A DNA stretch of 64,000 bases. Origin: an uncultured archaeon. Lineage in GTDB: Archaea; Altiarchaeota; Altiarchaeia; IMC4; SCGC-AAA252-I15. This document shows positions 3,261 to 47,202 of this stretch, in pieces. The notes beneath the pieces were generated by a model, which had not been told where the DNA came from, ran no database searches, and saw nothing but the letters and a program-made list of their open reading frames with translations. Location of the stretch: NCBI GenBank assembly GCA_964587725.1, contig CAZPLO010000002.1, positions 55,597-119,596 on the forward strand, given 5' to 3'. A program made the position numbers and the translations under genes. Within the stretch, counting starts at the first letter, position 1. Every line of letters begins with the position of its first letter.

Positions 3261-4778
3261 CTATTCCACCGCAGCCAGCGGCAGCTTCGCAGCCACCGCG
3301 AAAGCCAATGCAAGCACCGCCGGCAGCATCGGCAGGCAGCAAAGTCCCCCCCCTCCTTCTTCAGGCACGGTGGTTGTGGTGGGCTGGGTTGTGGGTGGGG
3401 CAGCCAACGTCGTGGCAGTGCTTTCGGTCGTGGTGGTTTCCTCAAACACGGTTGTGGTCGTCGTCTCCGGGCTGTAGTCCTCGTCTATCTCGTATAAGCG
3501 GACGTCTGTGCTGTACTCGTTCCCTCTTACGGTGCTTTGCTCCCAGTTCCAGGCCGCAACCACTTCGGCTTCGCCGTCGCCGTCGAGGTCGCCCATGTAT
3601 GTGGCGACCGCGTTCGCGTCCCGTTCCTCATATGCTTTAGTCAGGCCCTGTATCTCTATGGTGTATTTCCAGCTGCCTATGAGGCTGCCGTCGTCGTCCA
3701 GCAGGTACAGGTATTTGGTTGTGCCGACCACCACCTCCATGCGTCCGTCCCCGTCCATGTCGTAGGCGCTCATACTGTATACTGTGCCTTCCACGGGTTC
3801 CGTCCACTCCCACAGCATCCTGCCGTTGCCCTCTAATGCGGTCACCCGCGGGGCTGAGCCGACCAGCACCTCCACGCCGCCCGAGCCGTCGAGGTTGACT
3901 GCGTGGACGCTGGAGACGATGTTGCCTGTGTCGTAGCTCCAGTCCAGGCTGCCGTCTCCGTCGTATGCGACTACTCCCTGCTCGGCCGTACCCACCACGA
4001 CCATGTCTGCGGCGGTTTCTATGAGGTTTCCGGCCAACATTGCAGTGTAAACTCCACCCTCGATGTTCTCCTCCCAGAGTATCGTGCCGTCGGAGGATAT
4101 GGCGTACACGTATGCGTCGCCGTAGCGGTGTGAGAGGGCGACCACTTCCGGGCTTCCGTCCCCGTCCAAGTCCACGGATTCAACATAGTATACGGGGTAC
4201 TGTCTGGTGTCGACGCTCCACAGCACCGGCTCCCGCTGCTTGGGGTCGTCTTTAAGCACGCACACCTTCTTGCTCTGCGTCCCCATTATGACGTTTAGTG
4301 TGCCTGTGCCGTCGAGGTCGGCTGCGTCGACGCTGTGGCTGAGACCGCATTCCTTGTCGAAGTTCCAGTCCTCTATGCTGGTGTCATGTATCACGCGCAC
4401 GTATTCGCTGGGCGTTTCGGAGCCGGGGTGACTGGACTTCACCGAGTTAACCACCACCTGCTTCCTCCCGTCTCCGTCGAGGTCCGCCACGGCGAAGCTT
4501 TTCACGTTGCCGTCGGTGTCGAAGGACCAGCCTCCGCTGGTCAACGCAGTCCACTCGCTGGTGCAGTCAACGCCTTTGTAGACGTAGTTGTAGAGTATCC
4601 CGTTCACCGAGGTGCCCATGAGTATGTTGGGTGTTCCGTCCCCGTCAAGGTCTTCTACTTCTATGACGTTGGCGAGGTCGTTTTTCAGGATGGACTGGCA
4701 CGCCGGCTGAAACAGTTCAGCCGATACCGTGCCTGCCAGCAGCACTATTAAGCCCAGGTAGAGTGCGCGGTATTTCAT
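3261..4778 (-). CDS. Secreted FG-GAP/PQQ-type beta-propeller surface protein with Thr-rich linker and C-terminal anchor
   Basis: Signal peptide MKYRALYLGL..., many D-L-D-G-D-G Ca-binding loops, TTTT linker, GGGGLCCLP + hydrophobic tail. Confidence 0.8.
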   Translation of the reverse strand: MKYRALYLGLIVLLAGTVSAELFQPACQSILKNDLANVIEVEDLDGDGTPNILMGTSVNGILYNYVYKGVDCTSEWTALTSGGWSFDTDGNVKSFAVADLDGDGRKQVVVNSVKSSHPGSETPSEYVRVIHDTSIEDWNFDKECGLSHSVDAADLDGTGTLNVIMGTQSKKVCVLKDDPKQREPVLWSVDTRQYPVYYVESVDLDGDGSPEVVALSHRYGDAYVYAISSDGTILWEENIEGGVYTAMLAGNLIETAADMVVVGTAEQGVVAYDGDGSLDWSYDTGNIVSSVHAVNLDGSGGVEVLVGSAPRVTALEGNGRMLWEWTEPVEGTVYSMSAYDMDGDGRMEVVVGTTKYLYLLDDDGSLIGSWKYTIEIQGLTKAYEERDANAVATYMGDLDGDGEAEVVAAWNWEQSTVRGNEYSTDVRLYEIDEDYSPETTTTTVFEETTTTESTATTLAAPPTTQPTTTTVPEEGGGGLCCLPMLPAVLALAFAVAAKLPLAAVE

Positions 4779-6755: not shown

Positions 6756-8618
6756 ATGGAATGTGTGGACTGTTTCCCCTACTCCGCCGTCCGCAGCGGC
6801 CAGGAGGAGTTCATGCGCGACTGCAGCGAAGCATTCAAGAAAGCGGACGTGCTTGTCGCCCACGCACCCACCGGCATTGGGAAAACCGCCGCCGTTTTGT
6901 CCGCCGCAGTCGACCACGCCCTGAAAAACCAGAAGACCATATTCTTTCTGACCCCCAAACACACCCAGCACACCATCGTCGTAGACACCGTGAAGAGGAT
7001 GCGGAAACGCCACGGAGTGTCGGCGTCGGTGGTGGACATAATAGGGAAGCAGTGGATGTGCCCACACCGCGTCCGCGACCTGAGCTCCCGGGAGTTCAAC
7101 GAGTTCTGCCGCAGCCGGAAGAAGGACGAGACATGCGAGTACTACAACAACACCCGCAGGAACAAACTGTCCAGGAATGGGTTGGACGCCGCCGCCAAGA
7201 TACTCGCGGAGCCCCTCCACAACGAGGAAGCGTTGAAAATATGTTCTGAATCAGGCCTCTGCCCGTATGAGGTGCTGCTGGAGGCCGGGCGGAAAGCGGA
7301 CGTCATAGTATGCGACTACTTTCACGTCTTCAGCCCGTCGGTGCGTCGGGCGTTCCTCAGCAAACTCGACCGCAGCGTAGAAGACAGCGTCCTCATAGTC
7401 GACGAAGCGCATAACCTGCCGGACCGTATACGGTCGATTATGTCCAACACACTCAGCACGTACACGCTCGACCGGGCGTCGAAGGAGGCTAAGGCGTTGG
7501 ACATGCGGCAGCTCGCCGACGACTTCATAGAAACCGTGAAGGTGCTGAAGAAGCTCGCAAGGAGCGTGAAGCCGGGCGGGGAGCGGTTCGTGGACAAGAC
7601 GGAGTTCGCGGACGAACTGGAGGCTGCGTTGAAGATGCCGTACGACGACTTCCACGGGGGCGTGGAGGCGTTGGGGGAGGAGGTGCTGAAGCTGCCGAAC
7701 CGCTACCGCTCCCACGCCAAGACCGCCGCACGGTTCCTGGAGTCGTGGCGGGGCCTGGACCTCGGTTACGCCCGCATACTTCGGAAGGAGAGGAAGGGAT
7801 TGAAATTGTCTTACCGGTGCTTGGACCCTGGCGTATCGTGCAGCGAGGTCTTCAACGCCGTTTACTCGGCTGTGCTGATGAGCGGCACCCTGACTCCATT
7901 GAGCATGTACTCGGACACCCTGGGTCTGCCTGGGAACAGGACCATGGAGCGCGCATACCGGAGCCCGTTCCCCAGGGAAAACCGCCTCACACTGCTGGTG
8001 CCGGGGCTGACGACGAAGTACGCGCAGCGCGGCGACTTCATGTACGGGAAGTACGCGTCCACGATTTCATCCGTCCTGTCCCACATACCCGGGAACGCGG
8101 CTGTCTTCTACCCGTCGTACAGGCTGCTGGCTGAGATCGGCGCGAGGGTGAAGTCGTCGAAGGAGGTGGTTGCGGAGCGGCAGGACATGAAGAAGGCGGA
8201 CAGACGCCGCGTATTCAACCGGCTGGTGAACCTGCGCGGGGACGGCGGGGGGGTGTTGATGGGCGTGCAGGCCGGCGGCTTCAGCGAAGGGCTCGACTAC
8301 GCAGGCAACCTGTTGGATGCGGTCGTCATCGTGGGGCTGCCGTTGGAGCACCCCACCCTGGAGACGCAGGCGCTGATAGACTACTACGACTTCCGTTTCG
8401 AACGCGGCTGGGACTACGGCTACATCTACCCTGCCATGAACCGCGCCCTCCAGGCTGCCGGAAGGTGCATCCGCAGCGAAACAGACCGCGGAGCCATCAT
8501 ATTGTTGGATGAACGCTTCAAATGGGGTAATTATAGGAAATGCTTCCCCTCCGACTTCGATTTCATTGTCACGGAGAAGCCGGGGAAGTATCTGCAGCGT
8601 TTTTTTCAAATAGTTTAG
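6756..8618 (+). CDS. xpd: XPD/Rad3-family Fe-S DNA helicase
   Basis: APTGIGKT Walker A, four Cys of the Fe-S domain, CPYE, DEAH, SGTL, QAAGRCIR motif VI. Confidence 0.93.
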   Translation: MECVDCFPYSAVRSGQEEFMRDCSEAFKKADVLVAHAPTGIGKTAAVLSAAVDHALKNQKTIFFLTPKHTQHTIVVDTVKRMRKRHGVSASVVDIIGKQWMCPHRVRDLSSREFNEFCRSRKKDETCEYYNNTRRNKLSRNGLDAAAKILAEPLHNEEALKICSESGLCPYEVLLEAGRKADVIVCDYFHVFSPSVRRAFLSKLDRSVEDSVLIVDEAHNLPDRIRSIMSNTLSTYTLDRASKEAKALDMRQLADDFIETVKVLKKLARSVKPGGERFVDKTEFADELEAALKMPYDDFHGGVEALGEEVLKLPNRYRSHAKTAARFLESWRGLDLGYARILRKERKGLKLSYRCLDPGVSCSEVFNAVYSAVLMSGTLTPLSMYSDTLGLPGNRTMERAYRSPFPRENRLTLLVPGLTTKYAQRGDFMYGKYASTISSVLSHIPGNAAVFYPSYRLLAEIGARVKSSKEVVAERQDMKKADRRRVFNRLVNLRGDGGGVLMGVQAGGFSEGLDYAGNLLDAVVIVGLPLEHPTLETQALIDYYDFRFERGWDYGYIYPAMNRALQAAGRCIRSETDRGAIILLDERFKWGNYRKCFPSDFDFIVTEKPGKYLQRFFQIV

Positions 8619-8659
8619 AGTAAACTTTAAACTGTTTATACTTTCTTTTAAACTGTTTC
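8607..8659. repeat. Three AAACWGTTT-like palindromic boxes at exact 21-bp period (site A)
   Basis: aaatagttta 8608-8617, aaactgttta 8629-8638, aaactgtttc 8650-8659; matches site B at 37936-37988. Confidence 0.8.
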
Positions 8660-9529
8660 AATTTGTATGGCGCCTTTGTAGACTTCCTCGGCGGGGCCGA
8701 TGAGGTAGGCTTTTCTGATGTCGTCTTTTTTGCCTTCCAGTTCTACTTTCACGTCTCCTCCGCGGGCGTGGAACAGCAGCGGCCTTCCGATGTCTGCCCT
8801 CCCGTTCAATACTGCGGCGACGGCGGACGCGCAGATGCCTGTGCCGCAGGCGAGGGTCTCGTCTTCCACGCCGCGTTCGTAAGTCCTTATCTTGAACTCG
8901 TTCTCCCCCGCTTCTTCGATGAAGTGGACGTTGACGCCGTTGGGGAACAGCTGCGTGTAATAGCGTATCCGGGGGCCGATGGTCTTCAGGTCGAGGTTGT
9001 CTATGTCGCCGTTGAATATTATGGCGTGGGGGTTGCCCATGCCCACGGCGGTTATCTCGTATTCGAACCCGTGTATCATAACCTTCTCTCCGACGAATTT
9101 TTCATCCGGGTCTCCTGTGACCTGGGCTTCCCCGCGTTTCACCTGCGGGCGGTCCATGTCCACCTTCACCTCCAACACCGCGTCCTCCACCACTGTGAGT
9201 TCGAGCGTCTTCACGCCCGCCAGGGTTTCGGCGGTCATAGCCGGCGTGTCGACGAGCAGGTGGTCGTGGACGTATTTGGCGAGGCAGCGTATGCCGTTGC
9301 CGCACATTTCAGCGCGGCTGCCGTCGGGGTTGTAGAACACGAAGTTCACGTCCGCTTTACCGGATTTCTGGACGAATATGGCTCCGTCGGCGCCGACGCC
9401 GGTGTGGCGCCTGCACATTTTCTCCACGAAACTCGGTTTATCCGTGTCCGGGACTACCTTATTATCCCATTCCTCGACCACGATAAAGTCGTTGCCGCTT
9501 CCGTGCATCTTCGTGAACCTGACTTCCAT
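8648..9529 (-). CDS. dapF: Diaminopimelate epimerase
   Basis: FTKMHGSGNDF, EMCGNGIRC, MGNPH, ERGVEDETLACGTG. Confidence 0.96.
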   Translation of the reverse strand: MEVRFTKMHGSGNDFIVVEEWDNKVVPDTDKPSFVEKMCRRHTGVGADGAIFVQKSGKADVNFVFYNPDGSRAEMCGNGIRCLAKYVHDHLLVDTPAMTAETLAGVKTLELTVVEDAVLEVKVDMDRPQVKRGEAQVTGDPDEKFVGEKVMIHGFEYEITAVGMGNPHAIIFNGDIDNLDLKTIGPRIRYYTQLFPNGVNVHFIEEAGENEFKIRTYERGVEDETLACGTGICASAVAAVLNGRADIGRPLLFHARGGDVKVELEGKKDDIRKAYLIGPAEEVYKGAIQIETV

Positions 9530-33789: not shown

Positions 33790-34734
33790 CTATCCCACCG
33801 GCGCCTTCACCTTATCCAATACTTTGGAGATTATGTCGTCCGGGGTGATGCCGAAGTCTCTCGAGTCCGGATTCAATATTATCCTGTGCCGGAGCACCGG
33901 GAACGCCAGGTTCTTAATGTCTTCGGCGTTGACGCTGTCCCTGCCCTTGAAGAACGCCCTCGCCTTAGCCGCCTTCGTGAAGTCCACCGTCGCCCGGGGG
34001 CTGCCGCCAGTCGCAACCTCCCTGCGGGTGCGGGTGCCCTCCACAATCTTTATCAGGTACTCCAGCATGCTGTCTGACATGGCTATGCTGTTCTCTATCT
34101 CCTCCCTTATGATAAGTATCTCCGGCGGATTGAATATCTTGCTTATTTTAATCTCCTCGGCCTTCGACTTCACAATCATCATCTCCTGTTCCAGCGTCAA
34201 ATACTGCATCACGGACTTGAACATGAAACGGTCCTTCTGGGCCTCCGGAAGCGGATAGGTGCCGAGCTGCTCCACAGGGTTCTGTGTCGCCAACACGGTG
34301 AACGGCTGCGGCAGCTTATGGGTCGTGCCGCCCAGCGTCACAGCCTGCTCCGCCATGGCCTCCAGCAGCGCCGACTGCGTCTTCGGCTGCGCACGGTTTA
34401 TCTCGTCCACCAGAAGCAGGTTGGTGAAGATGGGGCCCTTCTCCAAAACCTTCTCCTTCTTGGCTTCCTCGTATTTCACCTTCCCGAGGATGTCGGAGGC
34501 GGTGACGTCCGGAGTGCACTGAATACGCTTGAAAACCATGTCCATGGTTTCCGCGATGGTTTTCGTCAGCACGGTCTTTCCCATGCCCGGAACGCTCTCC
34601 AGCAGGATGTGTCCGCCGGCGAAGACAGCGATTAATATGTCCTCTATGACCTCATCGTTGCCTATGACGCGCTTGTGGACTTCGTCTCCCAGCTGCCGGA
34701 ACTGCTGGAACACGTCCTTGTCTCTCTCAACCAT
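33790..34734 (-). CDS. moxR: MoxR-family AAA+ ATPase
   Basis: ESVPGMGKT, RIQCTPD, DEINRA, ATQNPVEQLGTYPLPEAQKDRF, GGSPRA, VLRHRI. Confidence 0.95.
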   Translation of the reverse strand: MVERDKDVFQQFRQLGDEVHKRVIGNDEVIEDILIAVFAGGHILLESVPGMGKTVLTKTIAETMDMVFKRIQCTPDVTASDILGKVKYEEAKKEKVLEKGPIFTNLLLVDEINRAQPKTQSALLEAMAEQAVTLGGTTHKLPQPFTVLATQNPVEQLGTYPLPEAQKDRFMFKSVMQYLTLEQEMMIVKSKAEEIKISKIFNPPEILIIREEIENSIAMSDSMLEYLIKIVEGTRTRREVATGGSPRATVDFTKAAKARAFFKGRDSVNAEDIKNLAFPVLRHRIILNPDSRDFGITPDDIISKVLDKVKAPVG

Positions 34735-34757: not shown

Positions 34758-37700
34758 TTAATTACCGGCCCCCGCCTTCACGTTAACGGGCTCGCTGCTC
34801 TTGAAATACCGTTTTCCGTCCGGGTCCCTGTAAAACAGCTCCACCAGCTTAGCCGGGTAACTGCCTTCCCGACTGGACTTGAACTTAACCTTCACCGTAC
34901 GTTCCCCGCCCGCCGGGAGGGACTTGATTTCCTCCGGAGCCTCGGATACTTCGAAATCGTCTGTGGTGTTGCCGAGGAACCGGACTCCGGTGACGTCCAC
35001 GCCGCCGTCGTTGACGACCAGCCCGTCAACCCCCACCTCACTACCCACTTTCACATCCAAAGTGTCGCCGAAATCCAGCGTCACAGACGGCGTGTCGCCG
35101 GCCGGAGCCTTCTCCTCCACGGCCCCTGTAGCTTCCCCACCCCTCGCCTGCTCATCCGGCTTCTCCTCGTCGGGCGCTCCGGTGTCCAGCATGGTCCGCG
35201 CCTCCGCAGCTCCGCCCTCCAAAACCTCCAGTTCGCGTCCGCTGAATCCACCGGACTTGACCGCCTCGTTCAAATACTTCAGCGCCTCCTCCAGTTTCTC
35301 AGAGCCTCCGGCATCCCCCTCCTTCAGCATTTTAGTTCCCTCGGCCTTCAGCCTGTAGCCGGCGGAGCGGTTGACGCGGTCGTCCATGCGGCTGCGGCGG
35401 TAATAGGGTATGGACTCCTGGTAGTGTTGGGCCGCTCCTGCGGGGTCCCCTATCGCATCCAGGGCCTGTCCGATAAACCAGTGGGCGTCTCCCAGGCGTT
35501 TCACGGTTGTCTCATCCTCCACTTCACGGCCGGCCCCGATGTAACGTGTGTAGCAGTCTATTGCCTTCCGGTAGTGTTTCTCCAGCTGCTCGTCGGTCCT
35601 GAACTTACCGTATGTTTCAGCCATCTGGCGGTAGCCGTCGCCGGCCTGGAACCAGTTGCCGTTCCGCTCCTGCGACTCACCGTATCTCCTGTAGGATTCG
35701 ACGGCCTTCATGTAGTTTTTGAAGTCGGCCGCCGGCCGTTCAATGACCTCCACGCTGACTTCGCTGCTGGCTTTGACGTATTTGTGGCCTTTCTGGTCCT
35801 CGTAGTAGACTTCAATAGGCTTTATCCTGTATTCCCCCGTCCTGCTGGCCGTCAACTCCACCGAAGCCTTCCTTTCGCCGCCGGGCTCCAGCTCCGGCAC
35901 ATCGTCCGGCAGCTTCAGCAACTCCATCTCCTCGGGCAGATGCTCCAGAAACGTTATCCCCTTCATGGTGTAGCTTCCGTTGTTGCTGAGCTTCAAATTC
36001 AGCACTACGGGGACGCCGGAGAATGTTACCGTACGCTGGTCCATATCCAATGTGACGTCCGGCTTCAGTTTTATCTTGTTCACCATCGCCCTGCCTTCGT
36101 CGACGTTCTCCCCCAGTATCCTAACATACTCTCTCTTCCAGTCGCCGCCCTCGATTGCCTCGTTGAAAAGTTTCTCCGACTCCGACACCAGCTTCTCAGC
36201 CGCGTTGTAGTCGCCGCGGTCCAGGGCCTTCACAGCCTCCACGCTCACCCGGAAAGCGGATGTCACCTTCACCCTCCCCTCCTCTCCGGCTTCCCCGTAT
36301 ATCCCCTCTGCCTTGGAGAAGTGCTGCAACGCGTTGTTAAAGTCCCCCAGGGTCTTGTAGCACTCACCTATTTTGCGGTGGGCGTCGCCTAACAGGACTT
36401 TGTTGTCTCCGGCTGCGGCGTACTTGCTGAAATACGACACCGCCTTGTCCAGCCGGTTCTTCATCATGGGGTGGTCGTGCAGTCGCCGGTAGCAGTTGCC
36501 GGCCTCCATGTAGGCGAGTCCGGCCCCGTACAGGTCTTTCTCCTCCTCTTTGGCGGCGGCGTGCCGGTCATACAGTTCGGCGGCCCGCCCGTAGTCTCCG
36601 TGGTCGACGTATGATTCAGCGGCGTCCCACAGCATCCCCCCCTCCACGTAGGCTTCCGCAGCCTCTCTGAAGGCCTCTTCGGAGCCTTCATTATCCCCTG
36701 CCTTATCCAGCAGCTCAGCCCGCCTCCTGTAGGTTTCAGCCGACTTCTCATGCAACCCTATTTCACCGTAGGCTTCAGCCGCCTTCCCCATCAAATCCGC
36801 CGCATCCCCTCCTCCAGACTTTTCAGCCGCCTTCACGTAAGCGTCCGCCGCCTTCATATAAGCGTCCCGGGTCACCCCATCGTTTTTGGCTAGTTCGCTG
36901 GCCTTAGCAGCATCCACGTACCTGTCGCCGGCGGTTTTCAAATCGCCTTTCAACGCATATGCTGCCGCGGCTTGGGAGTAGGACGCCGCCGCCTGCGCCA
37001 CAGAGTCTATGCCGTAGTATGTCTCCGCGGACTTCAGGTAGTATCCTATGGCGTTGTCCACCTCCCCGCCGTTCTGGTAGACTCCCCCGACCTCCCGGTA
37101 GCTGGCTGCGGCTTTGGCTTGGTTGTCGTTCGCAGCTCGTAGGTCGGCGGCTTTGAGGTGATAGTATATCGCGTTTTTCTGGTCGTCCAGTTCATAGTAT
37201 GCCTCGGCCATCCTCTCGTAGGTGTCAGCGACTTCAAGATATTGTCTGTTGAGGGTGTCTATCTCCACCGCCCCCGCGTAGCCGTCTATGGCATCCTTCC
37301 ACCTCCCAGCCCGCTCATAGTTTTGGGCGGCCTTCTTGAAGCTGAGGCCGGCGCTGGCCTTGTCCTTTATCTTCAGGTCCACGACCGCAGACTTCTCGTA
37401 CATCTGGGCTGCGCTGCCGTGTTCTCCGTCTTTCTCATAGTATTCTGCGGCAGCATGGTATGCGTAGCTGGCGTTGAAGAAGTCGCCGACGTCCTCGAAC
37501 ATTATCCCCGACTTTTCATAGAATTCTCCCGCCCGTTTGAAGTTGTCGAGTTCCTCGAACGTTTTAGCGCCTTTCTCATATACCTCCCCCGCCTTCTCGT
37601 GGTCGCCCAGCACCCTGTAGCGGTCGGCGCATCGGATATAGTATTCGCCGGCCTTCTCATGGTCTTTGACTCTGTCTTCATGGCTTTCGTGGTCGAGTTT

Positions 37701-37880
37701 CTCGTAGCAGTCGCCGACCTTCTCCTCGTAGAAGGCCACCTCCCGTTCGTCGCCCCCCTTAAGCGCGGTCTTCAGCAGCTCCTCGTATTTCTTCAATGCT
37801 GCACGGAAGTGCTTTCCCTTGAAGCTGCTTTCGGCTTGATGATGCAGCAGCTCCCGCCTGGCCTGCTGGAGGAGGTCCAT
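34758..37880 (-). CDS. Cytoplasmic SNAP/TPR-like alpha-solenoid protein with two Ig-like domains
   Basis: Dozens of ~20-aa A...Y..AA..Y repeats; two aligned beta-sandwich domains (PxVTLD...N.G...PGGER...Y.D..G..Y); no signal peptide or TM. Confidence 0.8.
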   Translation of the reverse strand: MDLLQQARRELLHHQAESSFKGKHFRAALKKYEELLKTALKGGDEREVAFYEEKVGDCYEKLDHESHEDRVKDHEKAGEYYIRCADRYRVLGDHEKAGEVYEKGAKTFEELDNFKRAGEFYEKSGIMFEDVGDFFNASYAYHAAAEYYEKDGEHGSAAQMYEKSAVVDLKIKDKASAGLSFKKAAQNYERAGRWKDAIDGYAGAVEIDTLNRQYLEVADTYERMAEAYYELDDQKNAIYYHLKAADLRAANDNQAKAAASYREVGGVYQNGGEVDNAIGYYLKSAETYYGIDSVAQAAASYSQAAAAYALKGDLKTAGDRYVDAAKASELAKNDGVTRDAYMKAADAYVKAAEKSGGGDAADLMGKAAEAYGEIGLHEKSAETYRRRAELLDKAGDNEGSEEAFREAAEAYVEGGMLWDAAESYVDHGDYGRAAELYDRHAAAKEEEKDLYGAGLAYMEAGNCYRRLHDHPMMKNRLDKAVSYFSKYAAAGDNKVLLGDAHRKIGECYKTLGDFNNALQHFSKAEGIYGEAGEEGRVKVTSAFRVSVEAVKALDRGDYNAAEKLVSESEKLFNEAIEGGDWKREYVRILGENVDEGRAMVNKIKLKPDVTLDMDQRTVTFSGVPVVLNLKLSNNGSYTMKGITFLEHLPEEMELLKLPDDVPELEPGGERKASVELTASRTGEYRIKPIEVYYEDQKGHKYVKASSEVSVEVIERPAADFKNYMKAVESYRRYGESQERNGNWFQAGDGYRQMAETYGKFRTDEQLEKHYRKAIDCYTRYIGAGREVEDETTVKRLGDAHWFIGQALDAIGDPAGAAQHYQESIPYYRRSRMDDRVNRSAGYRLKAEGTKMLKEGDAGGSEKLEEALKYLNEAVKSGGFSGRELEVLEGGAAEARTMLDTGAPDEEKPDEQARGGEATGAVEEKAPAGDTPSVTLDFGDTLDVKVGSEVGVDGLVVNDGGVDVTGVRFLGNTTDDFEVSEAPEEIKSLPAGGERTVKVKFKSSREGSYPAKLVELFYRDPDGKRYFKSSEPVNVKAGAGN

Positions 37881-37935
37881 TGTAATAAAAAAGTATTTGT
37901 TATACGGCGGTTAAATAGCGGCTTCCACGGGTGTT

Positions 37936-37988
37936 TAAACTATTTAAAATTTCTTTTAAACAGTTTATACTTTATTCCAAACAGTTTA
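37936..37988. repeat. Three AAACWGTTT-like palindromic boxes at exact 21-bp period (site B)
   Basis: aaactattta 37937-37946, aaacagttta 37958-37967, aaacagttta 37979-37988. Confidence 0.8.
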
Positions 37989-38014
37989 ATACCTGCCTCA
38001 TCAAATATTCCATC

Positions 38015-39694
38015 ATGCGCGACGTGAAGGACGAGGTTGCCGGAATCCTCGCGGAGGCGGCTGGCTCGGAAGTCACGGTGGACGACGTTAGGGAGTCTCC
38101 GGTGGCGGACTACGGAAGTCCCGTAGCGTACCGCCTCGCCAGCGAACTCAAGAAAAAACCGCAGGACATAGCCGCCGACATAGCCTCGAAGGTGAAGCCG
38201 TCGGACCTGGTGAAGTCCGCTTCGGCCGACGGCGGCTACGTCAACTTCACCCTCGACTACGGCGCGCTGACGGAGAAGCTGCTGTCAGAGACCCGGGAAA
38301 CACAATCCAGGAAGGAAAAGGTCATACTAGAGCACACGTCGGTGAACCCGTCGGGTCCGGTGCACGTTGGGAGGATGCGGAACACGGTCATAGGCGACAG
38401 CCTGCGCAGAATCCTCGAACACGTTGGATACGAAGTGGAAACCCATTACTACGTCAACGACCTGGGGAAGCAGATCGCGATAATAGCGGCGGGATTCGAC
38501 GAGGGTGTGGAACCCAGCGGGGAGCTGGTGGAAAAATACGAGGCGTACGCGGGCCGCGAAGACTACAGCACATTCTTCACGTACGTGGAAGCCAACCGGC
38601 TTTATGAGGAGGACGAGGGCTTCCAGGAGAAGGTGCAGTCCCTGATTCAGGCGGCGGAGTCCGGCGACGAAAAAGCGTTGGAGAAGATAACGTCTGCTGC
38701 ATCCAGGTGTTTGAAGGGGCAGATGAAGACCTTCGGCCGCCTTCACGTGCGGTTCGACGTCTTCGACCTGGAAAGCTCTGACTTACGTGACGGTGGAGTC
38801 GACAGAGTATTGGAGGCTGCGAGGGAACACCCCCTCTCCAAAAAAACCGACTTCGGCGAAGGCCTGGACCTGAGCGGTCAAGGCATCGAGAAACGCGGGG
38901 GCATGTCGGTGCTGGCGCGCGCCGACGGAACCAGCGTGTATCTGGCTCGGGACATCGCATACCACCTGAGGAAGATTAAGCTGGGGGACCGCATAATCAA
39001 CGTCTTGGGTGAAGACCATAAGCTGGAGTTCAAGGAGCTCACCACCATACTGTCGGAGGTGTTCGGCGTGGAGAAGCCGCTGGAGGTCGTGCACTTCAGC
39101 TTCGTCAGCTTCGAGGGCTTGAAGTTCTCCACCCGCAGGGGGGAGATTGCGGCGGTCGACGAGCTGTTGGACGAGGCGGTGGAAAAAGCGCGCGAGGAAG
39201 TTGAGAAGCGAAAACTCGGAGACGAGTCCACGCCTCCGATTGTGGGTGTGGGTGCGGTGAAATTCCACATAGTGAAGACCACACCCAACAAGCAGATAAC
39301 GTTCCGTTGGGATGACGCACTCAGCTTTGAAGGCGAGTCCGCCCCGTACATACAGTACGCGCACGCCCGCAGCTGCAGGATACTGGAGAAGGCCGGCCGC
39401 GGTTCCAGTGAAGTCGACTACGTCGTCGAAGACAAGCATGAGAGAGCTTTGGTGCGGAAGCTGCTGGAGTTCGAAGATGTGGTGGAGGACGCAGCCCGCC
39501 AGCTCCGCCCCGACTTGGTCGCCACCTACCTGATTGAGTTGACCGGCGCATACGGCCGCTTCTACATGAACTGTCCGGTCCTGGATTCCAAGGGCGGAGT
39601 TCGGGGGAGGCGGCTGAAGCTGGTGGAGAAACTAAGGGACACCGTGAAAACAGGACTGGGTTTGCTGGGGATAGAGGCTCCGGAGAGGATGTAG
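38015..39694 (+). CDS. argS: Arginyl-tRNA synthetase
   Basis: EHTSVNPSGPVHVGR (HIGH), YYVND, KFSTRRG, YIQYAHAR, ERM terminus; start at MRDVK. Confidence 0.96.
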   Translation: MRDVKDEVAGILAEAAGSEVTVDDVRESPVADYGSPVAYRLASELKKKPQDIAADIASKVKPSDLVKSASADGGYVNFTLDYGALTEKLLSETRETQSRKEKVILEHTSVNPSGPVHVGRMRNTVIGDSLRRILEHVGYEVETHYYVNDLGKQIAIIAAGFDEGVEPSGELVEKYEAYAGREDYSTFFTYVEANRLYEEDEGFQEKVQSLIQAAESGDEKALEKITSAASRCLKGQMKTFGRLHVRFDVFDLESSDLRDGGVDRVLEAAREHPLSKKTDFGEGLDLSGQGIEKRGGMSVLARADGTSVYLARDIAYHLRKIKLGDRIINVLGEDHKLEFKELTTILSEVFGVEKPLEVVHFSFVSFEGLKFSTRRGEIAAVDELLDEAVEKAREEVEKRKLGDESTPPIVGVGAVKFHIVKTTPNKQITFRWDDALSFEGESAPYIQYAHARSCRILEKAGRGSSEVDYVVEDKHERALVRKLLEFEDVVEDAARQLRPDLVATYLIELTGAYGRFYMNCPVLDSKGGVRGRRLKLVEKLRDTVKTGLGLLGIEAPERM

Positions 39695-46221: not shown

Positions 46222-47202
46222 CTATATTTCGATGCCCAGTTCCCTCGCTATCTCCTCGTAGCGGTTGCGGATGGTGACTTCCGTGACGCCCGCTAGCCGG
46301 CCGGCGATGCCCTTCTGGGTTTGTTTGTCGTTGGTTATCTTCCCAGCCAGGTATATGGCGGCCGCGGCGACGCCGGTGGGGCCTCTCCCTGATGTGACGC
46401 CCTTCTCCCGCGCCTTCTCCAGTATCTCAATCGCCTTCGCCTCCGTTTCACCCGACAAACCGAGTTCCGAAGCGAACCGGGGGACGTAGTCCATGGGCGT
46501 GGCCACCGGCATCCTCAGCCCCAGACGCCTGCACGCGAACCGGTAGCTTCTGCCGATGTCCTTCTTCTTCACGCCGCTGGCTTCCTCCAGCTCCTCCAGC
46601 GTCTTCGGAAGCTGATGCTTACGGGAAATCAGGTAGATGATTGCAGCCACCACGGACTCGATGCTGCGGCCCCGGACCAAACCCTTGTTGACGGCCTTCC
46701 GGTACCACATCGCGCACTCCTCCTTGATGTTGTTTGGTATGTTGAGGTACGCGCACATCCTGTCCAGCTCAGGCAACGCGATGCTAAGGTTCCTCTGCAC
46801 GCTGTCGCTCATCCTGCTCCTGCGCTGCCACTTCCGCAGACGGTAAAGCTGGGCCTTCCGCTCCGGCTGTATGGCTCCGCCGCGGATGTCGCGGTCGTAA
46901 CGGTCTATCTCTGTTGTAAGTCCCTTGTTGAGTTTCGCGAACTTCACAGGCCCGCCGGTTCTCGCGCGCTTGCTCTTCTGCTCCTCGTCGAACGCCCTCC
47001 ACTCCGGGCCGAAGTCGAACATCCCAGCCTCCAATACAAGGCCGCAGTCCTTGCACACCAGCTCCCCGTGTTTGTAGTCTGTAATAAGATTCGCGCCGCC
47101 GCAGTCCGGGCACCTGACTTCTCCGTCGCCGCCGGACGGTGTCCTGTCCGCAGACGCCTCCTCCGTATCGTCCGACTTTTTCCCGCCCGTTGATTTAACC
47201 AT
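46222..47202 (-). CDS. tfb: Transcription initiation factor IIB
   Basis: CPDC...CKDCG ribbon, GPEWRAF, RLRKWQ, two cyclin repeats, GVTEVTIRNRY. Confidence 0.97.
   Translation of the reverse strand: MVKSTGGKKSDDTEEASADRTPSGGDGEVRCPDCGGANLITDYKHGELVCKDCGLVLEAGMFDFGPEWRAFDEEQKSKRARTGGPVKFAKLNKGLTTEIDRYDRDIRGGAIQPERKAQLYRLRKWQRRSRMSDSVQRNLSIALPELDRMCAYLNIPNNIKEECAMWYRKAVNKGLVRGRSIESVVAAIIYLISRKHQLPKTLEELEEASGVKKKDIGRSYRFACRRLGLRMPVATPMDYVPRFASELGLSGETEAKAIEILEKAREKGVTSGRGPTGVAAAAIYLAGKITNDKQTQKGIAGRLAGVTEVTIRNRYEEIARELGIEI

Follow-up and report, generated by a model that had tools for sequence, protein, structure and literature searches.

Bacterial repetitive extragenic palindromes (REPs) are G+C-rich stem-loops that occur in hundreds of copies and are tied to a Y1 (RAYT) transposase, and clusters of them (REP/BIME) are bound by host architectural proteins and are hot spots of rearrangement. 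Among regulators of the Lrp/AsnC type, Ss-LrpB reportedly provides an example of a cluster of regularly spaced operator boxes. Archaeal Lrp-type regulators bind as cooperative dimers to clusters of imperfect sites, which are spaced by two or three helical turns and so lie on one face of the DNA, and wrap it (PMC2995911); such operators lie in the control regions of few targets, including the regulator's own gene. Symmetric bidirectional promoters in which a TATA box stands between two TFB recognition elements (BRE-TATA-BRE), so that one TATA-centred core serves both directions, are documented for Pyrococcus furiosus and the Thermococcales (PMC6640164). Here, we describe a row of three phased palindromes (site B) between argS and a MoxR operon in a 64,000-nucleotide stretch of an uncultured archaeon of the Altiarchaeota (assembly GCA_964587725.1, contig CAZPLO010000002.1, positions 55,597 to 119,596), hereafter the window, together with the family of about 40 such arrays to which it belongs.

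To our knowledge, Altiarchaeota have no cultured, genetically tractable member, and we know of nothing on their genome organisation or regulation. A literature search on Altiarchaeota intergenic repeats and on archaeal REPs at convergent genes, which did not cover subscription journals, returned nothing on arrays of this kind. The arrays are built from 15-bp imperfect palindromes repeated every 21 bp, lie mainly at the ends of genes, are restricted to one genus and mark junctions at which gene order has been reshuffled. We tentatively read them as phased docking sites for a putative dimeric, sequence-specific DNA-binding protein at the borders of transcription units. A compact and recognisable DNA signal of this type offers a handle on a putative DNA-binding factor and on how small archaeal genomes rearrange without breaking genes, and a 60-bp array with a clear consensus could serve as bait for protein capture and as a marker for rearrangements in metagenomes.

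The comparison with described systems gives partial likenesses. With Lrp/AsnC operators the arrays share clustered imperfect palindromes of ~15 bp, an A/T-rich centre and helical-turn spacing, but they number about 40, lie mostly at 3' ends or fill gaps and show no regulon, and the Lrp genes are not genus-specific. REP/BIME clusters are likewise short, lineage-specific, extragenic palindromes that are frequent at gene 3' ends and between convergent genes. Unlike REPs, however, the arrays are A/T apart from one C and one G, phased at 21 bp, limited to three units and to about 40 copies, and archaeal, and a Y1 transposase was not found with them in the two genomes searched. The symmetric TATA-centred core of the Thermococcales promoters has a likeness in the shared TATA or back-to-back TATA pair that relatives use in the argS spacer, and box 3 sits at the TATA position, whereas the arrays have an AAA-YWR-TTT core that is absent from ordinary promoters, occur as tandem triplets and are commonest where no promoter is needed.

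Anatomy of site B and its sister array

Site B consists of three imperfect 15-bp palindromes (TTTAAAC-W-RTTTAAA) whose centres lie exactly 21 bp apart. It occupies the 134-bp divergent spacer (37881-38014) between argS and the TPR/SNAP gene that heads the MoxR operon. Coordinates without a contig prefix are window positions; G000 is the window's genome, G001 the only congeneric genome, and C-numbers are contigs. The features of the locus are as follows.

37934 to 37948: box 1, TTTAAACTATTTAAA, centre 37941, 0 mismatches to TTTAAAYWRTTTAAA
37949 to 37954, + strand: spacer 1, ATTTCT, T-rich on the + strand and the source of the array's polarity
37955 to 37969: box 2, TTTAAACAGTTTATA, centre 37962
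37970 to 37975, + strand: spacer 2, CTTTAT
37976 to 37990: box 3, TCCAAACAGTTTAAT, centre 37983, 3 mismatches
37985 to 37991, + strand: TTTAATA, at -30 to -24 of the argS ATG, overlapping the right half of box 3
37911 to 37918: isolated half-box TTAAATAG, an inverted repeat of 37940-37947
38015 to 39694, + strand: argS, arginyl-tRNA synthetase, 559 aa, ATG at 38015
34758 to 37880, - strand: TPR/SNAP-like protein of 1040 aa, encoded at the head of the MoxR operon and divergently from argS
33790 to 34734, - strand: MoxR AAA ATPase

The 9-bp cores of the three boxes are AAACTATTT at 37937 and AAACAGTTT at both 37958 and 37979, and these are the positions that the original prediction, made from the letters of the window alone, had given as box starts. 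Repeat analysis recovers a 21-nt direct repeat (37934-54 and 37955-75, 76% identity) and an inverted symmetry with 27-nt arms (70%). In a comparison of 36500-39500 with the contigs of four DNA runs from one microbial-mat study, three of which may be where this DNA came from, no variant, indel or joint was seen at site B, a result that speaks only for stability of the array in those assemblies.

The sister array, site A, lies in a convergent setting.

8605 to 8661: site A, boxes centred at 8612, 8633 and 8654
6756 to 8618, + strand: XPD-like helicase, convergent with dapF
8648 to 9529, - strand: dapF

Site A fills the 29-bp gap (8619-8647) between the two genes and overlaps both stop codons. 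The sites have in common the 21-bp period and the spacers 'ATACTTT' / 'TTTCTTTT'; the spacers are T-rich on the same strand at both, with a weak polarity at site A (T5/A3), and blastn aligns the two in direct orientation at 88% identity over 33 nt. This agrees with the prediction that period, core, spacer and orientation are the same at both sites, and the predicted gene map, divergent at site B and convergent at site A, was correct as well. With up to one mismatch, AAACAGTTTA matches ten times in the window compared with 2.36 expected, and none of 100 shuffles reaches ten; sites A (8608-8658) and B account for four matches each, and the remaining two are at 4710 and 19953. Between the sites lie polB, hisS and type IV pilus genes. 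The suggestion that the two sites bracket dapF, polB, hisS, the pilus locus and the MoxR operon thus stands for gene content, but not for a 29-kb bracketed domain, given that they are two of about 40 arrays.

A genome-wide family restricted to one genus

The window's genome is an Altiarchaeota metagenome-assembled genome (MAG) of 1.56 Mb in 48 contigs, with 56.8% G+C and an estimated completeness of 92%. Chaining of boxes, under a definition of the array that depends on the mismatch threshold, gives 40 arrays in G000 compared with 2 over five genomes shuffled within 60-bp blocks (~0.4 per shuffle). The scan for further copies that had been proposed for both sites therefore places them in a family of ~40 arrays. 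Relaxed outward extension resolves this family into 15 arrays with two units and 25 with three, and none is longer. An iterative 21-mer position weight matrix drifted into generic A/T-rich DNA and was discarded.

The phasing is strict. Sites that match TTTAAACNGTTTAAA with up to three mismatches number 131 in G000, and the distances between them peak at 21 bp (30 pairs) and 42 bp (11 pairs), compared with 3 pairs at 20 bp and 1 at 22 bp. The core AAAYWRTTT occurs 142 times, with 34 pairs at exactly 21 bp and 10 triples; off the period there are 2 pairs at 20 bp, 1 at 22 bp and none at 19, 23, 10 or 31 bp. The unit of 21 bp combines a 15-bp imperfect palindrome, with the core T-N2-AAA-YWR-TTT-N2-A, and a 6-nt T-rich spacer. 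Across 67 oriented units the best-kept positions are T(-7), AAA(-4..-2), TTT(+2..+4) and A(+7) around a YWR centre, with a spacer rich in T on one strand; conservation reaches 100% at A(-2) and T(+2), and every box individually fits the consensus. Different arrays are 86-95% alike over 30-51 nt by blastn, and this similarity is confined to the arrays, with unrelated flanks.

We searched the doublet pattern in 61 Altiarchaeota genomes from 31 genera (59 genomes and 30 genera outside the genus). There are 34 exact matches in G000 and 8 in G001, none in the 19 other same-family genomes searched, and a single chance-like match in 40 Altiarchaeota genomes of other families. As a whole, G001 holds 25 arrays (23 doublets and 2 triplets) compared with 1 in three shuffles, and its pairs occur at 21 bp only. 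Metagenome contigs gave three matches, two of them attributable to chance in A/T-rich DNA and one a real-looking array on a G+C-rich contig (L173), and the viral contigs searched gave none. The family is restricted to one genus of uncultured Altiarchaeota.

Arrays lie at the ends of genes

Most cores (119 of 142) are intergenic or at gene edges, and 81 lie within -20 to +60 of a stop codon. By context, 15 of the 40 arrays are convergent, 18 tandem, 4 divergent and 3 at contig edges, in line with the prediction that the element is independent of gene orientation. Convergent junctions are nevertheless enriched, at 15/37 arrays versus 270/1508 junctions genome-wide (18%; binomial p 0.001). The median convergent gap is -4 bp, and 7 of the 17 convergent gaps of 30-70 bp are arrays; in these gaps the array is essentially the whole spacer. 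Among tandem cases, the upstream gene has the T-rich spacer strand as its sense strand in 4/13, and the A-rich strand faces the downstream gene in 9 versus 4, so that no firm orientation rule emerges; arrays are found in both orientations relative to genes.

The 77 proteins that flank arrays are mixed housekeeping functions (prefoldin, DnaJ, Hef, XPD, dapF, lysA, TGT, purE, Cdc48, eRF1-like, RpoE and others), and no regulon is visible among them. This distribution points to a boundary role at transcription-unit edges rather than to pathway regulation. Boxes within 200 bp of contig ends number 12 versus 2.6 expected, as would be expected for a dispersed repeat. Two such ends, the start of C32 (1-77) and the end of C34 (11278-11332) of G000, have 55 identical bases including the array, and the two contigs therefore probably adjoin; at G000 C17:22509, an N-run (scaffold gap) begins directly after an array.

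Promoter context of argS

Start codons across the genome are preceded by a T/A-rich signal at -30 to -24, without a Shine-Dalgarno-like signal, which suggests that many mRNAs of this Altiarchaeota genome are leaderless. The hexamers TTTAAA and TTTATA peak at -32 to -28 of start codons. Upstream regions of 14 tRNA genes, few and heterogeneous, gave no promoter consensus. At argS, TTTAATA occupies the position of the genome-wide signal, and the two closest relatives, whose argS promoters are without an array, have TTATATA at a like distance (22-24 nt before the argS start). Hence TTTAATA is the putative TATA box of an argS mRNA that is probably leaderless. This assignment to a TATA position applies to site B alone, and there to box 3. 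The half-box at 37911 to 37918 is a candidate TATA region for the TPR/SNAP-MoxR operon, which runs leftward. The boxes are not simply TATA/BRE elements lacking other genomic copies, which was the outcome named beforehand as fatal to the prediction: there are many copies, though box 3 overlies the likely argS TATA. Furthermore, 51 ordinary promoters that have TTTAWA at -33 to -26 are without the AAAYWR core.

The closest argS homologues (66% and 63% identity) come from Candidatus Altiarchaeota MAGs, and the divergent adjacency of the TPR gene and argS is present in six Altiarchaeota relatives. In the alignment, the relatives' conserved promoter core GTTATATACTT falls on the right half of box 2 together with ACTT. 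Of the two closest relatives, one carries its TATA boxes back to back (CTTTAAG-CCG-TTATATAC) in a divergent spacer of 62 nt and the other a single shared TATA, with spacers of 56-62 nt overall. The shared adjacency and the alignment of box 2 argue that site B is an ancient bidirectional promoter region, which in this genus carries the family boxes and has an additional 21-bp unit separating the ancestral TATA from argS. Within the genus, site B is not comparable, since argS was not found in G001 (rated 90% complete) with the window's protein as query; eight candidates were scored and none passed. At the site A locus, the 3' end of dapF in G001 is without an array, and an extra epimerase gene separates XPD and dapF.

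Arrays and gene-order change

A link between the element and synteny breakpoints had been proposed as a check, and it is seen. Adjacency of the flanking genes in G001 was scored for the junctions of G000, with Fisher tests against arrays.

Array junctions: 7/23 conserved
Junctions without an array, all: 689/831 conserved (p 7e-8)
Junctions without an array, gap 20-400 bp: 267/337 conserved (p 2e-6)
Junctions without an array, a 40-bp window of at least 80% A+T: 43/58 conserved (p 4e-4)
Junctions without an array, at least 85% A+T: 15/23 conserved (p 0.04)
Stricter criterion: array junctions 4/23 versus junctions without an array 650/831 conserved (p 1.9e-9)

Counted the other way, arrays lie at 16/158 broken junctions versus 7/696 conserved ones, and among array junctions of G001 only 6/23 have orthologues on both sides. 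Arrays thus mark junctions of reshuffled gene order.

Two cases illustrate the changes. The first is a partner exchange: in G000, there is an array at each of two junctions, C1:120114 (between PPIase and lysA with a small gene) and C9:33683 (between genes B and D), and in G001 the partners are swapped and without arrays, with lysA plus the small gene next to B, and PPIase overlapping D. The lysA-PPIase adjacency occurs in 0/11 outgroup genomes in which both genes were found, which makes the G000 junction the derived one. The second is an inversion at C24:7931, where the G000 order (FMN reductase, dapB, purE, array, GATase) is common to three outgroups, and in G001 the FMN reductase-dapB-purE block lies inverted, each of the new junctions having one degenerate box. 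In this case the junction with the array is the ancestral one, and the break passed through it. Both cases fit recombination at or between arrays, and fit general homologous recombination as well as a dedicated protein.

Boxes also persist in place. At least one box is present at 11/54 orthologous gene ends of G001, compared with 81/1823 background ends (odds ratio 5.5, p 4e-5). Both genomes have arrays at the convergent TGT/AIR-synthase pair (C8:45971, C6:28376), in which the sequence has drifted and the boxes and their spacing are kept.

A 141-aa protein encoded at G000 C9:33749-34171 and G001 C11:79909-80376 (39% identity) turned up in both genomes of the genus but in none of 13 other same-family genomes; its gene overlaps the PPIase gene in G001 and lies behind an array in G000. 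It was considered as a genus-specific binder of the arrays and rejected, because its translation reads by eye as a membrane protein and not as a DNA binder.

Possible roles of the arrays

The docking reading draws on a palindrome that acts as a signal at the level of DNA, the strict two-turn phasing, the limit of three units, the retention of the motif where sequence drifts and the restriction to one genus. A ceiling of three is expected of a complex of fixed size and not of free slippage. The anatomy, phasing, copy number, taxonomic range, location, partial conservation of position and breakpoint association are observed, and protein binding, cooperativity and an effect on transcription are inferred. 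The geometry is that described for archaeal Lrp-type regulators (PMC2995911). Phasing at two helical turns would place up to three dimers on one face of the DNA, where cooperative binding could bend ~60 bp, or wrap them, into a single nucleoprotein plug at the border of a transcription unit. At site B, the argS TATA (box 3) and the ancestral bidirectional core (box 2) would both lie under such a plug, which might throttle or insulate the two divergent promoters; where genes converge, as they do at site A, the plug would be a roadblock or boundary. Since the arrays are repeats of ~60 bp, 86-95% alike and possibly bridged by protein, they may also serve as substrates for ectopic recombination. 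Chromosome organisation is another possible role.

Our confidence in this reading is less than even, because the analysis yielded no binder, the counts of candidate factors do not track the motif, the half-sites equal a TATA consensus and turnover is high. In detail, the following observations count against it. Genes for TBP (two in G000, one in G001), TFB (two and none found) and Lrp/AsnC (two and two) do not follow the motif; Lrp counts are 1-3 in 10/11 other same-family genomes searched, and neither Lrp gene of G000 (C9:21192 and C4:46591) is near an array. The TTTAAA half-sites are the genome's own TATA consensus, so that basal factors could be the binders. Convergent enrichment (15/37) combined with the lack of a functional theme is unusual for a regulator, and the register between box and start codon is not significant (box centre at -25 to -33 in 9/20 arrays adjoining a 5' end). 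A full array is present in G001 at only 3/57 orthologous flanks and a box at 11/57, most G000 arrays having no G001 counterpart there; a repeat that is selfish or neutral would account for such turnover equally well. The breakpoint statistics are based on 23 informative array junctions, the genomes compared are one incomplete MAG and one sister genome, and gene calls and start codons come from our own simple codon-usage caller (1556 genes in G000).

One of the two TFB genes of G000 lies in the window itself (~46243-46785; C2:101839-102381, minus strand). The two TBP genes are at C8:48724-49239 and C26:76-582, and the G001 counts for TBP and TFB were obtained by Pfam model.

A stronger version of the docking reading is distinctly improbable in our estimation. 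It holds that a genus-specific protein on the phased triple palindromes insulates transcription units, bridges arrays and promotes exchange between them, which would be an undescribed archaeal border system. Were it true, gene blocks would be inverted or swapped precisely at unit borders with the genes undamaged, and the arrays, made of promoter-like DNA, would correspond in function to integron attC or BIME sites.

Among the rivals, a selfish or repair-templated junction repeat of the REP/BIME or MITE (miniature inverted-repeat transposable element) type fares best, and we regard it as doubtful. It holds that a ~60-bp module without cellular function was copied into tolerated gaps at gene ends, decays from three units to two and provokes rearrangements. 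The presence in one genus only, with an unequal load of 40 versus 25 arrays, would suit such a repeat, as would the high likeness between arrays and their filling of convergent gaps that are otherwise near zero. Against a mobile origin, however, similarity ends at the array edges, and blastn revealed no terminal inverted repeats, target duplication or larger element; viral contigs have no match, and units never exceed three. A Y1/RAYT transposase (PF01797) has 0 matches in G000 (92% complete) and G001 (90%), searched with a model that detects 6/14 control genomes. The lack of a regulon and the excess of boxes at contig ends (12 versus 2.6 expected) are again what a dispersed repeat would give. 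The breakpoint data lean in the same direction, through the low conservation of adjacency (7/23 versus 689/831), the arrays at both G000 junctions of the partner exchange and the lysA-PPIase junction that is missing from outgroups, whereas the retention of boxes at orthologous sites while the intervening sequence drifts, and the position of site B in an ancient junction with a box 2 orthologous to an ancestral promoter, are harder to reconcile with it. Even if only selfish, the arrays would be a rare case of a REP-like family in archaea.

Unlikely, and slightly more so than the selfish repeat, is a composite of basal signals without a dedicated factor, in which a TATA-like TTTAAA pair with an A-rich (BRE-like) and T-rich (oligo-T terminator-like) spacer arose from a duplicated bidirectional core promoter. 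The arrays would then work as promoters, terminators or both through TBP/TFB and RNA polymerase alone. Several observations favour this: TTTAAA/TTTATA peak at -32 to -28, box 3 supplies TTTAATA at -30 to -24 of argS, relatives have a back-to-back or single shared TATA in the argS spacer, and symmetric promoters are documented in Pyrococcus furiosus (PMC6640164). Across the family the fit is poorer: 9/20 arrays next to a 5' end do have a box centre at -25 to -33, but the register test is not significant, and 15/37 arrays lie between convergent genes, where no promoter is needed. Generic promoters are without the AAAYWR core, where conservation of the box is highest. The A-rich strand does point toward the downstream gene in tandem contexts (9 versus 4), but the T-rich strand is the upstream sense strand in only 4/13 cases, which would make a poor oligo-T terminator. 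The exact 21-bp phasing and the limit of three units are left unexplained. Neither the selfish repeat nor the basal-signal module excludes docking of a protein.

A structured RNA, with adjacent boxes pairing into a hairpin of a 3' untranslated region or leader, is very unlikely. Box 1 and box 2 can pair, with a predicted energy of -11.6 kcal/mol (z -2.5) for the + strand and -14.8 kcal/mol (z -3.2) for the - strand, but complementarity between neighbouring boxes does not exceed that between boxes of different arrays (10.79 versus 10.81 of 15; permutation p 0.54), the stems are A/U only, both orientations relative to genes occur and the window has no Rfam match. The original prediction had offered a further option, in which site B would be an operator acting locally on argS or the MoxR operon and site A an orphan copy without function. 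This is scarcely credible even with boxes that overlap the argS core promoter, since it is contradicted by 40 arrays genome-wide without a functional theme and by argS promoters of the closest relatives that are without an array.

Two further candidates were rejected. A replication function, also raised beforehand, found no link to orc1/cdc6: forty loci cannot be origins, and the lone array near a Cdc6/Orc1-like gene sits behind a small open reading frame (ORF) and has no other repeats beside it. A MITE was rejected for want of terminal inverted repeats or target-site duplication, and because the flanks of arrays are unrelated by blastn.

Further observations

The array near the Cdc6/Orc1-like AAA gene has two boxes and lies 50 bp before its start; the small ORF upstream (G000 C11:2000-2220) is presumably HicA-like, judged by eye. 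At G000 C10:3330-3640, a small Cys/His-rich ORF missed by the caller is divergent from an NFACT-R gene across a three- or four-box array; by eye, we take it to resemble an AN1-type zinc finger with a C-terminal hydrophobic helix.

G+C-rich hairpins accompany some arrays. One follows directly after orthologous arrays at G000 C8:46030-46055 and G001 C4:65895-65920, with differing sequences (CCGGCGGCC...GGCCGCCGG-like versus GGCGGGTGGG...CACCCGCC), so that compensatory change seems to have preserved the stem. A pair of G+C-rich hairpins resembling each other (CCGCCGGTCATAGACCGACGG and CCACCGGTCAATAGACCGGTGG) stands at G000 C1:119990-120100, between a small membrane-protein gene and the array at C1:120107.

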